From a candidate division NC10 bacterium CSP1-5 (GTDB lineage: Bacteria; Methylomirabilota; Methylomirabilia; Methylomirabilales; CSP1-5), in assembly GCA_001443495.1 (NCBI GenBank), contig LDXR01000006.1:11059-75058 (forward strand): DNA of 64,000 bases, given 5' to 3'. The notes below the pieces were generated by a model, which saw only the letters and a list, made by a program, of their open reading frames with translations, was not told the origin of the DNA and did not search any database. Of this stretch, positions 58,237 through 62,140 are shown piece by piece; positions within the stretch are counted from its first letter, which is position 1, and each line of letters begins with the position of its first letter. A program made the position numbers and the translations under genes.

Positions 58237-58293
58237 GGACAACTTGTCATGGCCCTGTGGAAGGGTCGATTTCGAGGGCAGTCGGAAAGGGCA

Positions 58294-58728
58294 ATGATGG
58301 ACGACCGTGACGAATTGACGCAACTCGAAACAGTGGCACTCACCGATGTTGGCGAAGATGCTGGGCTGCTACACGAAACGAACGGAGGTAGACGGCGTTA
58401 TCGCCGGTGGGTCATCCGGGGCGGCCTGAGCGGGTGCATCGACGCGGCGCATGGGGCCTCGTTCGTCAATATCAGCCTGGGCGGGGCCCTGATCGAGCAC
58501 TCGAGCATGATCCGGCCAGGGAGCATCGCGTTCCTGACCGTTGCCTTCCAAGGGCAAGAGGCGGGGCTGAAGTGCCGGGTGGTCCGCTCAGAGGTCCATC
58601 GCTACGGCGTCAGGCCTACCGAGGACAGACACCTCGTCTATCGGTCTGGTCTTGAGTTCGTGGACACCTCCGAGGCGTCCCTGCGAGTCATCGACAAAAC
58701 CATCGAATCCTTGAAAGTCGCGGCCTAG
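58294..58728 (+). CDS. PilZ-domain protein (c-di-GMP receptor candidate)
   Basis: RxxxR (RRRYRR) and N-x-S-x-x-G (NISLGG) PilZ motifs. ATG 58294/58297 follow SD GGAAAGGG; ORF-table ATG 58249 would be almost leaderless. Confidence 0.72.
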   Translation: MMDDRDELTQLETVALTDVGEDAGLLHETNGGRRRYRRWVIRGGLSGCIDAAHGASFVNISLGGALIEHSSMIRPGSIAFLTVAFQGQEAGLKCRVVRSEVHRYGVRPTEDRHLVYRSGLEFVDTSEASLRVIDKTIESLKVAA

Positions 58729-58730
58729 TC

Positions 58731-59273
58731 TTAGGCGACCGGTTTACATAAGCCGATTGTGCGAAGAGCGGGCCTCTCTCTCACCGAGTCGGACCAATGC
58801 GTCCAACTGAGCCACAGCCCGAGGACCGCCAGGATCAGGAAACCCTCCCACATGACAGAGTGGGCGAAGTTGAAGGCGGCCGGATTATGCGCGCCGAGGT
58901 AGAACAGGTGCGCGAGGCGCGTCAGGTTGAGCGCAATCAAGAGGGGCACGCCGACGACCAGTCCGACGAGCTTTCGTCGCCAGCGTCCGGGATAGGCCAG
59001 GATGGCCGTCGTGAGGAAGGCAACCGGCAAGAATCCGGTGCAGCGGTAGTAGATCTCGTAGGCAAAGCCGCTCGGGTGGCTGACCACGGTCGCCACCCGG
59101 GTCGCCTCCATTCCTAACCAGTGAAGCAATGCGAGCGTCGCCCGTGCCGTCCACATCGTCACAGGGGCAAGGGGCGCCCCGAGAACGTCCTCACGATACG
59201 TGAGCAGGGCGACGCCCGCAAATCCCACCATCACCGCGACGAAACGGAGATTCAGTTGCCTGGTCACGTGCAT
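58731..59273 (-). CDS. Minimal exosortase/archaeosortase-family transpeptidase (180 aa)
   Basis: Polytopic membrane protein with candidate Cys (YYRCTG), Arg (LNLTRLAH) and His (FAHSVMWEG) in the order seen in exosortases. SD AGGAG sits in the 15-nt gap after the S8 gene. Confidence 0.75.
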   Translation of the reverse strand: MHVTRQLNLRFVAVMVGFAGVALLTYREDVLGAPLAPVTMWTARATLALLHWLGMEATRVATVVSHPSGFAYEIYYRCTGFLPVAFLTTAILAYPGRWRRKLVGLVVGVPLLIALNLTRLAHLFYLGAHNPAAFNFAHSVMWEGFLILAVLGLWLSWTHWSDSVRERPALRTIGLCKPVA

Positions 59274-59288
59274 GGGATACTCCTGAGC

Positions 59289-61112
59289 CTACTCCTCCGC
59301 CAGCCGCGACCGCCTGCGAAGTACCCCGAACAGCAGAACAGAGACCACGAGAACAGCAACCCCGATCAGCGACAGGTCAGGCACTCGCACAGGTGCGGAG
59401 GCGCTGCTCCCGTCGGCCCCCGCCGTTACCGTCGTGTTCCCTTGCGATTCGCCCCGCACCGTGACCTGTGCCCTCCCGCTCGAATCGGTCACAGCAGAGG
59501 CCGGCGAGACCGAGGCCACGCTGGGATTCGCGGTGCTGAATGTGACCGCCTTACCCGCCTGCGGCGCCGCGCCCAACGTGACCGTCGCCCTGGCGGTCGT
59601 CGTTTCGCCCTGGTCGAGCTCCCTGTCGGGGTCCAGCACCAGACTCACGGCTAACTGGGGCCCTCCTCGGACCGCGCTCAGCAGACCTGCGCCACAGGGC
59701 TGGGGACACTGGCTCGATGTCCTGGGAAGGGCGTTGTTTCGGAGCTCGGCGGTGAGCTGCGCCGGGGTCAGCGTGGGGTTCTGGGCGAGATAGAGGGCGG
59801 CCACGCCCGCCACGTGGGGGGTCGCCATCGACGTGCCGTTATAGCGAGCGTAGGTTCCAGCGTTGGGGTGAACCATGCTGAGCACCCCGTCGTTGTTGCC
59901 GTCCCCATCGTCGTCCCGCTGCACGTCCCCGCCGGGTGCCATGATCTCGACTGTCGCGCCGAAATTCGAGTACCGGGTCACCAGGTGGCCGCGAGCGTCG
60001 CTCGCTGCCACGGTGATCACATTGTCGCAGCTCGCTGGGAAGACCTGGGATGCATCCACCGCATCATTCCCGGCGGCCACCACGACTGCGGCGCCCGCCC
60101 CTACCGCATCATTGATCGCCGCCTGGGTGGACGGGGAGGCCGAGCAAGGATTGCCGGGCGGGGTACCGAGGCTCATGTTGATCACCCTGGCCGGCGTCGC
60201 ATTTGCCGGCACGCCGGGGACGGCGAGGCCTGCGGCCCACCGGATGCCGTCGTTGATGTCGGCGATGGTGCCCCCGCATTTCCCCAGGACGCGCACGGCC
60301 TGAACCCGCACGGTCCAATTGGCGCCTGCGACCCCGACGCCGTTGTCGGTTCTTCCGACGCCGATGGTCCCGGCCACATGGGTCCCATGCCAGCTAGCGG
60401 GTTGGGCAGGATCGCCCGGGAAGCACTCGTCCGCGGCGACGGCATCGCCGGGGTCCGTGGGATCGTTGTCGCGACCGCTTCCGTCGTTGGCGATCGCCGG
60501 GTCGCTGATCATGTCAAAGCCGGCGATCAGGTTCGGGGATCCCGCGATGTCGGGATGGTTCGGGAGGACCCCGGTATCGATGACCGCCACAACGATGCTA
60601 CTGCTTCCCGTGGTCGTGTCCCAGGCTCTCGGGAGGCTGATCCCGCCCGGAGACTGGCCGGTGCCGGTGCCGTTGTCGCGGTAGTGCCACTGCTCAGGAA
60701 AACGGGGATCGTTCGGGGTTCTCACGATGCGCAATATATAGTTCGGTTGCGCATACTGGACATTGGGGTCTGCGCGTAGTTGCCGGAGGACCTCCAGTGT
60801 GCGATCCCGCGCCTGGGTGGGCGAGAGGGTCTTTAGGGCGGTCGGCGGGATGCGGTAGAGCAGCTCGCCGCCGGATGTCACGCGCTTGCCGTCCTCGACT
60901 CCGAACCGCTTGAGGTCTGCGGGACCAAGGGTCCGGGCCGGCTTCATCTTCACGATGACCTCTCCAGGGACGAACTGGGCCTGAGGGGGGATGGTCCTGC
61001 GCTCAAGAAGCCTGCGGACCTCCTCCGGCGTGCGTTCCTGGGCCTCTCCAGGGAGAGTGCCGTAGGCCAAGCTTGCCAGGGCAACCATGACTGCCAGTAG
61101 AGAGGTGCTCAT
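59289..61112 (-). CDS. Secreted subtilisin-like S8 serine protease with prodomain, Ig-like domain and PEP-CTERM-like sorting tail
   Basis: Signal peptide; prodomain ending AQPNYILRI; triad VAVIDTGV / HGTHVAGTIG / GTSMATPHVAG; Ig-like repeat; tail VPDLS plus hydrophobic helix plus RRRSR. Confidence 0.92.
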   Translation of the reverse strand: MSTSLLAVMVALASLAYGTLPGEAQERTPEEVRRLLERRTIPPQAQFVPGEVIVKMKPARTLGPADLKRFGVEDGKRVTSGGELLYRIPPTALKTLSPTQARDRTLEVLRQLRADPNVQYAQPNYILRIVRTPNDPRFPEQWHYRDNGTGTGQSPGGISLPRAWDTTTGSSSIVVAVIDTGVLPNHPDIAGSPNLIAGFDMISDPAIANDGSGRDNDPTDPGDAVAADECFPGDPAQPASWHGTHVAGTIGVGRTDNGVGVAGANWTVRVQAVRVLGKCGGTIADINDGIRWAAGLAVPGVPANATPARVINMSLGTPPGNPCSASPSTQAAINDAVGAGAAVVVAAGNDAVDASQVFPASCDNVITVAASDARGHLVTRYSNFGATVEIMAPGGDVQRDDDGDGNNDGVLSMVHPNAGTYARYNGTSMATPHVAGVAALYLAQNPTLTPAQLTAELRNNALPRTSSQCPQPCGAGLLSAVRGGPQLAVSLVLDPDRELDQGETTTARATVTLGAAPQAGKAVTFSTANPSVASVSPASAVTDSSGRAQVTVRGESQGNTTVTAGADGSSASAPVRVPDLSLIGVAVLVVSVLLFGVLRRRSRLAEE

Positions 61113-61190
61113 TGCTTCCTCCTTCCGCTCTTGATAAGCTATTCGATGCCGAGGCCGCTTTTGATTGCGGTAGATATTGAGGGCAAGGTA

Positions 61191-61835
61191 ATGACTATTT
61201 TGCTCGGTCTCGTGCTTCCAGGCATCCTCCTCGGGACCTCACCGGTGTCATCGCCTCGGTTTGTCCCCGGCGAGGTCCTCGTCAAGTTCGTTCCTGGATC
61301 GGACGGAGGCGCCGCCGTCATGCAAGCCAGTCGCGTCAGCCCTCCGGACCTAGGCGCGTTGGCGCAGGTGATCGACCGCTTACAGGCCAAGGTCAATATC
61401 CCTCTCAGGGCAAAGCAGGTGACGGGCGGCCAATGGGTCCTGTTGTCTGTCGATGGGGAAAAGCTGACAGATCAACTTCTCGAGAAACTCCGCGGGCGGG
61501 AAAGCGTCGCGGAGGTCCAACCCAGCGCCGGGAAACCCGAAGCCCATGTGAGCGTCTCGTTGCCGAAAAAGCTCGTCATCAGGTTCTCACCGGGCAGCGC
61601 AGAATCCCAGGCGGTCGCACGAAAGCTGGCAGATCCCAACGACATGGGCTTTTCTCGCCTCCTCCGCGATCTGGAAAAGGCGGTTGGCCTACCCTTACAG
61701 GGTGAGGTCGATGAAGACGCCACGGCTGTTGTGCAGATCGATCTTGCGGCCCTCACCCTGAAGCTCTCCGAGCAACTCAAGGCCCTGGCCGATGTCGAGT
61801 CGGCCCAGCCGAACTACATCTTGAGGATTCAGTAA
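61191..61835 (+). CDS. Secreted standalone protein made of two subtilisin-prodomain-like modules
   Basis: Signal peptide, then FVPGEVLVKF... and a second module ending LADVESAQPNYILRIQ-stop. This mirrors the start (FVPGEVIVKM) and end (AQPNYILRI) of the neighbouring protease's prodomain. Confidence 0.6.
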   Translation: MTILLGLVLPGILLGTSPVSSPRFVPGEVLVKFVPGSDGGAAVMQASRVSPPDLGALAQVIDRLQAKVNIPLRAKQVTGGQWVLLSVDGEKLTDQLLEKLRGRESVAEVQPSAGKPEAHVSVSLPKKLVIRFSPGSAESQAVARKLADPNDMGFSRLLRDLEKAVGLPLQGEVDEDATAVVQIDLAALTLKLSEQLKALADVESAQPNYILRIQ

Positions 61836-61869
61836 CTCGACCTCGCCGGTGCGACCCCGCGATATCCTG

Positions 61870-62140
61870 TCAGGCTTCTTTCACGGCAGATATGGCGATG
61901 AGATTTTCCAGCGGCCTATGGCCGTGGTCAGGGAGACATCGGGTGTCCGGGATCACATCAACGCGCACGGTGTTTCGAAGGACGTGCCGAACGGGGAAGA
62001 CGGTACCCGAGGGCCATGCGAAAGTCAAATCCGTCGCCAGCCCACTCGGAACAAGATCGTCAAAAAGCAAGTTCGGTGCCAACACCCTCCCCTTCCGCCA
62101 TCCGCCGATTGAGCTTGCGGGGGGCGGGCGAATCGGGTAA
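61870..62140 (-). pseudogene. Possible 3' remnant of an alpha/beta-hydrolase gene
   Basis: Minus-strand frame open for ~90 codons with no upstream context. It ends ...LLFDDLVPSGLA...VDVIPDTRCLPDHGHRPLENLIAISAVKEA-stop, resembling a degraded hydrolase C-terminus (Asp, then His, then short tail). Confidence 0.25.

Follow-up and report, generated by a model that had tools for sequence, protein, structure and literature searches.

The gene at positions 61191–61835 on the forward strand of a 64-kb stretch of DNA from candidate division NC10 bacterium CSP1-5 (hereafter, the window) encodes a protein of 214 amino acids, for which we use the working name TP (tandem-prodomain protein), composed of two modules homologous to the prodomain of the S8-family subtilase encoded by the divergently transcribed neighbouring gene. 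Along with the homology and the tandem architecture, we observed export signals across the TP family, purifying selection, conserved linkage to S8 genes, and a C-terminal end resembling that of a prodomain. The best explanation for these features is that the prodomain of the neighbouring S8 protease was duplicated in tandem and came to be encoded separately as TP, an exported paralog.

Homology of TP to subtilase prodomains

The outer edges of TP, that is, the first strand of module 1 and the last strand of module 2 together with the tail, keep the prodomain motifs, and the inner junction between the modules has degenerated. FVPGEVLVKF at TP residues 24–33 corresponds to FVPGEVIVKM at residues 47–56 of the protease, and the end of TP (...LADVESAQPNYILRIQ-stop) is the counterpart of ...NVQYAQPNYILRI at protease residues 105–129, the identity between ...TLKLSEQLKALADVESAQPNYILRI (followed by Q and the stop codon) and this protease segment being 60%. 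BLASTP of TP against the protease yields two matches, with 15 identities out of 25 (E 3e-6) and nine out of 13 (E 0.004), respectively. The two halves of TP (residues 21–115 and 116–214) are themselves related, with 26% identity across 88 amino acids (E 6e-9). Profiles of the modules (built from 79 diverse TP relatives) and of the prodomains (from 33 neighbouring proteases), compared with hhalign, give the same picture: module 1 matches module 2 with 99.1% probability (E 1.8e-18), module 1 matches the S8 prodomain profile over its full length (98.0%, E 1.9e-13), and module 2 matches this profile over the C-terminal 51 columns (98.7%, E 2.3e-16).

A profile search for a fervidolysin-like N-terminal domain, suggested in an original prediction made from the letters of this DNA, returned Pfam PF22148 (Fervidolysin_NPro-like) above its gathering cut-off (29.4 bits vs. 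21, E 1.1e-6) in two stretches, one of them, TP residues 19–41, within module 1; the same model is matched by 55 of the 79 diverse family members at E<=0.01. No family model of NCBIfam matches TP or its distant relatives. TP is neither N-terminal to a subtilase catalytic domain nor cleaved from one, its stop codon immediately following ...NYILRIQ, and no remnant of a catalytic domain is seen downstream of this stop codon. Hence, TP is a homolog of the PF22148 domain that is not functionally a prodomain. The nucleotide similarity of TP to the protease gene is negligible, the best blastn-short match being 14 nt (E 0.2); the relationship is old, and a recent duplication is not its source. In these respects the original prediction was borne out, as it had described the divergent open reading frame (ORF) with both quoted peptides and the C-terminal match, a second, diverged internal module, which the alignment of the two modules confirms, and low nucleotide similarity speaking against a recent duplication. 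Its view of a standalone tandem prodomain protein also stood, and the assignment of this protein to the I9 family was not supported, the I9 profile, PF05922, giving no match.

The boundaries of the gene are supported by the ORF list and the conserved length of the homologs. The product (214 amino acids followed by the stop codon) is identical to KRT70171.1 of candidate division NC10 bacterium CSP1-5, annotated as "hypothetical protein" (exact look-up). GAGG is found 8 nt upstream of the ATG start codon at 61191; a longer variant starting with TTG at 61131 was rejected, as only 18 bp would then separate it from the S8 start codon, acidic residues would fall in the would-be signal peptide, and it lacks a ribosome-binding site like the one preceding ATG 61191. 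The start codons of S8 and TP are separated by a divergent intergenic region of 78 bp (61113–61190), a scan of which revealed no sigma-70 consensus, promoter, or terminator.

The hydrophobic N-terminus of TP (residues 1–22, 61191–61256, i.e., the 66 nt preceding 61257) presumably serves as a Sec signal peptide or as an anchor. In CSP1-5 it reads MTILLGLVLPGILLGTSPVSSP; a charged n-region and a clear AXA site are both missing, so that a signal peptide, although plausible from the sequence, is atypical here. In distant members of the family, the Sec signal peptides are of the classical type, and about nine proteins bear a lipobox-like Cys; thus, the signal peptide originally predicted holds for the family and is less clear-cut for the CSP1-5 protein. 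Module 1 (residues 23–112, 61257–61526) is prodomain-like, keeping the first strand, FVPGEVxVKF, and having lost the NY motif and the tail. It is followed by a variable inter-module linker (residues 113–123, 61527–61559), which is modelled with low confidence and corresponds to poorly conserved alignment columns. Module 2 (residues 124–209, 61560–61817) is also prodomain-like and keeps the last helix and the last strand, (V/I)ESAQPNY. The free C-terminal tail, ILRIQ (residues 210–214, 61818–61832), matches the ILRI(V) ending the protease prodomain. All these features lie on the forward strand.

The tail deserves separate consideration. TP stops five residues past its AQPNY motif (ILRIQ-stop), and among the 167 sequences of the family bearing the motif (A/V)Q(P/L)NY, the number of residues separating the motif and the stop codon peaks sharply at five (86 sequences) and mostly lies between five and ten. 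In the protease prodomain, the NY motif is followed by ILRIV-RTPNDPRF, so that ILRI is identical in the TP tail and in the S8 prodomain of this lineage. As the TP and protease genes use different codons at six of the nine positions of the common peptide AQPNYILRI, its identity is maintained by selection. In thermitase-type enzymes, the mature chain begins one residue before TPNDP; by analogy, autocleavage of the protease would occur five to six residues after NY, about where TP ends. Such a genetically "pre-cleaved" prodomain C-terminus would be expected of a product-like inhibitor, and ILRIQ may then be the segment occupying the active site.

TP is a real conserved gene under purifying selection, with the ratio of nonsynonymous to synonymous substitution rates (dN/dS) about 0.25. 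A word-indexed search produced 52 relatives with 41–95% identity, all of the NC10/Methylomirabilales type, and an exhaustive profile search extended the family to 313 clusters (50% identity) at an E-value threshold of 1e-3, of which 235 also pass the threshold of 1e-10. With few exceptions, their proteins are 190–245 amino acids long and match end to end. The genomic hits come from metagenome-assembled genomes (MAGs) of Methylomirabilota (NC10), Nitrospirota, Acidobacteriota, and Gemmatimonadota (Gemmatimonadales); where the sources provide a name, it is always "hypothetical protein."

Several members depart from the two-module structure. Single-module variants of about 120–140 amino acids (loci L063, L059–L061) are encoded beside S8 proteases with a PPC-like C-terminal domain, with no XrtH; these variants, among them P0145 (L063:5884–6339, 142 amino acids), look as if the N-terminal half of module 1 had been fused directly to the C-terminal half of module 2. 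In L017 (4935–5216) there is a decayed remnant, in which only module 2 is readable, with no S8 gene nearby; it overlaps a response-regulator-like ORF of the opposite strand.

The AlphaFold2 model of TP, built with 25 homologs, has a mean predicted local distance difference test score (pLDDT) of 85.9 and a predicted template modelling score (pTM) of 0.80; confidence is low for residues 1–18 (pLDDT <50), 118–121 (<50), the block 111–120 (60), and the last four residues. The predicted elements (E, strand; H, helix) are E28–33, H38–46, H54–68, E72–78, E82–87, H89–101, and E106–111 in module 1, and E128–132, H137–147, H153–165, E169–173, E179–183, H185–197, and E202–207 in module 2. Thus, each module is modelled as beta-alpha-alpha-beta-beta-alpha-beta, i.e., the beta-alpha-beta-beta-alpha-beta prodomain fold plus one helix, and the tail as disordered. 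In the modules, this additional helix lies between strands one and two, and the 11-residue insertion of the S8 prodomain is missing; the hhalign gap pattern agrees with the extra helix. When module 2 is modelled alone, its last strand is unformed (pLDDT 79.8). A sequence-profile search of PDB retrieved, below the threshold, 9rk9_A, a 97-residue chain described as "subtilisin-like serine protease" (E 0.4), aligned to TP at FVPGE and at NYI. The case for homology of TP to the prodomains rests on sequence profiles.

Linkage to S8 proteases and the context of exosortase H

We scored 69 loci by tblastn, which yielded 42 TP clusters at 90% identity, 38 of them with enough upstream sequence to be informative. 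In all but two of the 38, namely the orphan L013 and the remnant in L017, the gene immediately 5' of TP is S8 (36 clusters), so that the S8 neighbour is rarely absent, its frequent absence having been named beforehand as the observation that would count against the original prediction. The linkage persists in three arrangements. The commonest one, with exosortase H (XrtH) and S8 transcribed in one direction and TP in the other (XrtH <- S8 <- / -> TP), is that of CSP1-5. In the second, the genes form an operon in the order S8 -> XrtH -> TP (L018, L054–L057, L062), with XrtH and TP overlapping in L018. In the third (L014, L020, L058, L059, L063), S8 adjoins TP and there is no XrtH, and hence TP is not an obligate component of the XrtH system. 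The proteases accompanied by XrtH (L012, L034, L041, L054, L057, L062) end with (V/A/T)P(D/S/L)LS, a transmembrane helix, and RRR; those without XrtH have a PPC-like C-terminal domain (L014, L058, L059, L063) or nothing (L020) in place of this signal. TP therefore tracks the protease core, not the sortase, and since it stays beside S8 genes that lack both XrtH and the sorting signal, the protease core would be its partner. The link is accordingly between TP and S8 and does not extend to the whole three-gene sortase cassette, whose co-occurrence had been suggested as a check of the original prediction.

Two further observations concern the gene content of these loci. In L019 (251–1456), a protein of 401 amino acids (P0156) is predicted, in which an XrtH-like N-terminal part of about 190 amino acids is joined to an entire TP with both modules; this single case, located on a 2.1-kb contig, could be genuine or could stem from a frameshift or an error of gene calling. 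In the XrtH-less loci L058 (191–1408) and L059 (1685–2872), there is a second, shorter S8-like gene (396–406 amino acids), located 1–2 kb past the TP-adjacent S8 on the same strand.

In CSP1-5, the S8 subtilase (607 amino acids, 59289–61112, reverse strand) consists of a signal peptide, a fervidolysin-type prodomain, the catalytic domain, a Big_1 domain, and a putative C-terminal sorting signal (Peptidase_S8, PF00082, E 4.5e-53; PF22148, E 1.3e-6; Big_1, E 2.5e-8), and its translation carries the D/H/S triad motifs VAVIDTG, HGTHVAG, and GTSMATPHVAG. Its own prodomain (approximately residues 46–131, 60720–60977, reverse strand) runs from QFVPGEVIVKM to AQPNYILRIVR and is followed by TPNDPRFPEQW. 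It is near-invariant among related strains, and a complete, highly conserved prodomain is retained in every TP-neighbouring protease examined. The sorting signal, identified from the translation (approximately residues 575–607, 59292–59390, reverse strand), reads VPDLSLIG, followed by a transmembrane helix and RRRSR; the NCBIfam IPTL-CTERM model has no match in the C-terminal 38 amino acids of the protease.

XrtH (180 amino acids, 58731–59273) is encoded 3' of S8 on the same, reverse, strand, and is recognized by TIGR04177 (101 bits vs. the cut-off of 86, E 6.3e-29) and Pfam Exosortase_EpsH (E 7.6e-10). The S8 protease is the sole ORF of the window with an XrtH-type C-terminal signal. An IPTL-CTERM signal is reported for the S-layer protein of Methylomirabilis lanthanidiphila (PMC8671808), and sorting by XrtH in these bacteria is probably devoted to the cell surface layer; therefore, the S8 protease is plausibly associated with the S-layer. 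Given the single signal in the window and the presence of IPTL-CTERM on the Methylomirabilis S-layer protein (PMC8671808), other XrtH clients are probably encoded elsewhere in the genome. A gene for a PilZ-domain protein (159 amino acids, Pfam E 6.3e-7, 58249–58728, forward strand), convergent with the XrtH–S8 pair, separates the 3' end of XrtH from the MTHFR gene; the relative L003 has a CBS-domain gene in this place.

Comparison with related strains (L009, L027, L031) demonstrates that TP forms a sharply bounded hyper-divergent island at approximately 61043–61921, which also encompasses the intergenic region. The nucleotide identity of the flanking genes (MTHFR, XrtH, S8, and Mg-chelatase-like) is 91–94%, whereas across the S8 signal-peptide codons, the intergenic region, the entire TP gene, and some 85 bp past its end, identity falls to about 70% or no alignment can be made. 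The dS of TP in these contig pairs is about 1.1, compared with 0.2–0.3 for the adjacent S8. This pattern of sequence divergence points to replacement of the TP allele by recombination. A separate difference is seen at 62084–62109, where the related strains L001, L003, L009, and L027 carry about 1.2 kb more, including a minus-strand gene for a methyltransferase of 194 amino acids just downstream of TP; this segment is absent in CSP1-5.

Proposed trans-acting inhibition and alternative functions

Judging from the sequence data, we give about an even chance to the possibility that TP is a trans-acting, prodomain-mimicking, perhaps temporary, inhibitor or latency factor for the neighbouring S8 protease. 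TP and the protease would be co-expressed, from the shared divergent region here and from the S8–XrtH–TP operon in other lineages, and both exported via Sec. The protease would fold with its own prodomain and then cleave it, after which TP would bind the catalytic domain in the manner of a cleaved prodomain, with module 2 on the prodomain-binding face and the free tail, NY-ILRIQ-COOH, lying product-like in the substrate cleft. The periplasmic or envelope-located protease might thereby be kept latent during removal of its C-terminal anchor by XrtH and its positioning on the cell surface; inhibition would be over once TP dissociates or is degraded, as happens with temporary inhibitors. Module 1, with its first strand kept and no tail, could provide extra affinity or bind a second partner. 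All these points, from the binding and the inhibition with its timing to what each module does, are read from the sequences and are proposed in this sense. In favour of such an inhibitor are the homology, the pre-cleaved tail, the linkage surviving rearrangements and swaps of the sorting signal, the export signals, the modelled topology of the modules, and the prodomain retained by the protease, along with the precedents of standalone propeptide-like inhibitors of subtilases (PMC6993865) and of bacterial inhibitors anchored in the envelope and encoded beside their target peptidases (PMC9890683).

A number of observations weigh against it. Covariation between the tails of TP and of the S8 prodomain is not significant in a permutation test with 22 distinct pairs (30 matches observed vs. 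26.4 in shuffles, p ~0.08). TP diverges much faster than the protease, its allele being replaced between close strains whose proteases are 91–95% identical, and this departs from what simple tight co-evolution would lead one to expect. The signal peptide of the CSP1-5 protein is, as noted above, atypical. Pfam Inhibitor_I9 (PF05922) does not match TP at E<=1 and matches none of the 79 diverse family members at E<=0.01. A Foldseek search against PDB, with either the whole model or module 2 alone, gave no significant match to a solved prodomain; for the whole model, the top matches were tandem KH and ACT domains with a root-mean-square deviation of about 15 A, and the best prodomain match was 8c4z_A (E 0.1, TM-score 0.36). 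In an Acidobacteriota MAG (L013:4932–5588), an intact TP, flanked by nucleoside transporter and cupin genes, has no S8 gene within 5 kb, being the only intact orphan among the 38 informative clusters. Finally, inhibition leaves the need for two modules unexplained.

The same homology to an intramolecular-chaperone domain and the same tight linkage to S8 would be expected if TP were a periplasmic trans-acting foldase, or steric chaperone, needed for protease activity and not restraining it, helping, for instance, after loss of the protease's own prodomain or during C-terminal tethering. Separately encoded steric chaperones, such as the lipase-specific foldase, are known (PMC3352829), and module 1 does keep the most conserved prodomain strand, FVPGEVxVKF. 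We nevertheless consider the foldase unlikely: every S8 protease examined keeps its full conserved prodomain, so that a second folding aid is not obviously needed, making the inhibitor the more economical role, and TP evolves faster than the protease prodomain. TP could also be an accessory of XrtH-dependent sorting, that is, an adaptor that holds the protease or presents it to XrtH, or else couples removal of the signal to activation. The operon arrangement S8–XrtH–TP, with the overlap of XrtH and TP in L018, and the predicted 401-residue fusion P0156 agree with such an accessory, which is rendered quite improbable by the presence of TP beside S8 genes having neither XrtH nor the sorting signal (L014, L020, L058, L059, L063), the fusion itself being single, located on a 2.1-kb contig, and possibly produced by a frameshift or gene calling.

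The fast evolution of TP, with its allele replaced between close strains next to a conserved neighbour, and the lack of significant covariation of its tail with the neighbour's prodomain tail could be accounted for if TP were a secreted inhibitor of subtilases of competitors or predators, linked to S8 merely by its origin through duplication. As adjacency is retained across phyla and in three gene orders, a sign that TP is functionally connected with the neighbour, and the TP tail equals that of the neighbour's prodomain in the CSP1-5 lineage, we assign this inhibitor of foreign enzymes a similarly small probability as the sorting accessory. Slightly less remote, albeit also improbable, is a two-headed regulator under inter-strain conflict, in which one module would clamp the protease and the other would engage a further partner (XrtH, another protease molecule, or a component of the S-layer), S8 and TP forming a surface weapon-and-immunity or self/non-self module; it would explain why TP alone is a bounded replaced allele with 91–95% identical flanks. 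As for a functionless decaying fragment of a duplicated protease gene, TP indeed consists solely of prodomain-like sequence, and one clear remnant exists in L017, but the 313 clusters, the conserved length and stop position, the family's own export signals, the dN/dS of about 0.25, and the absence of a catalytic-domain remnant past the stop codon make it hardly credible; accordingly, we rejected the pseudogene interpretation on the grounds of family conservation and dN/dS.

Known systems and biological meaning

Bacterial inhibitors encoded next to their target proteases are known, also from other peptidase classes. Spi, encoded beside speB in Streptococcus pyogenes, is homologous to the propeptide of the neighbouring protease, and AprI/Inh of the serralysin operons is a periplasmic guard encoded together with a secreted protease. 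The targets of Spi and AprI are a cysteine (C10) and a metallopeptidase (M10), respectively; both inhibitors are single-domain and have no link to a sortase.

The characterised standalone propeptide-like inhibitors of subtilases, namely, yeast PBI2, Pleurotus POIA1, Arabidopsis SPI-1, Toxoplasma MIC5, and Plasmodium SUB1-ProM, are all eukaryotic and single-module, and SUB1-ProM is syntenic with subtilase genes (PMC6993865). Like TP, the MEROPS I9 standalone inhibitors (PBI2, POIA1, SPI-1) are small, prodomain-resembling products of separate genes, and they inhibit subtilases by mimicking the cleaved propeptide (PMC6993865). SUB1-ProM is closer still in sharing with TP synteny with subtilase genes along with its standalone, propeptide-like nature; it resides in the compartment of its target and inhibits it selectively (PMC6993865). 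Unlike the I9 proteins, TP is bacterial, tandem, exported across the bacterial envelope, and related to PF22148 and not to Inhibitor_I9; unlike SUB1-ProM, a eukaryotic single-module protein with experimentally demonstrated inhibition of SUB1, it has two modules. With SUB1-ProM and Spi, it shares a separate gene, homology to the prodomain of the neighbour, and conserved adjacency.

The closest domain, the fervidolysin-type N-prodomain (PF22148), has the same first strand, FVPGEVxVK, the last strand, YAQPNY, and the short tail; TP differs from it in being a separate gene product, in its tandem structure, and in having a free C-terminus that is encoded rather than made by autocleavage. The potempins of Tannerella forsythia resemble TP in that they are bacterial, located in the envelope, and encoded beside a secreted peptidase, and share with it the proposed logic of a self-protecting or latency partner; they are outer-membrane lipoproteins, one of whose targets, mirolase, is subtilisin-type (PMC9890683). 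They differ from TP in belonging to another phylum and another secretion context (a type IX secretion system, KLIKK peptidases), and the abstract indicates no prodomain origin (PMC9890683). In the literature searched, we found no description of a bacterial standalone subtilase-prodomain protein or of a partner of XrtH. What is new in TP is thus a bacterial, tandem, and partly sortase-associated version of the standalone prodomain-like protease partners.

Should TP indeed inhibit the adjacent protease, the range of standalone prodomain mimics would reach beyond eukaryotes and take in a widespread family of bacterial proteins of novel tandem build, present in several phyla of environmental importance (NC10/Methylomirabilota, Nitrospirota, Acidobacteriota, and Gemmatimonadota). 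The family would then serve as a naturally available library of inhibitors, specific and genetically encoded, for subtilases of the fervidolysin/thermitase type, TP would offer a first functional handle on companions of the poorly understood small exosortase XrtH, and it would be a test case for how a surface-anchored protease is silenced during its transit through the envelope.

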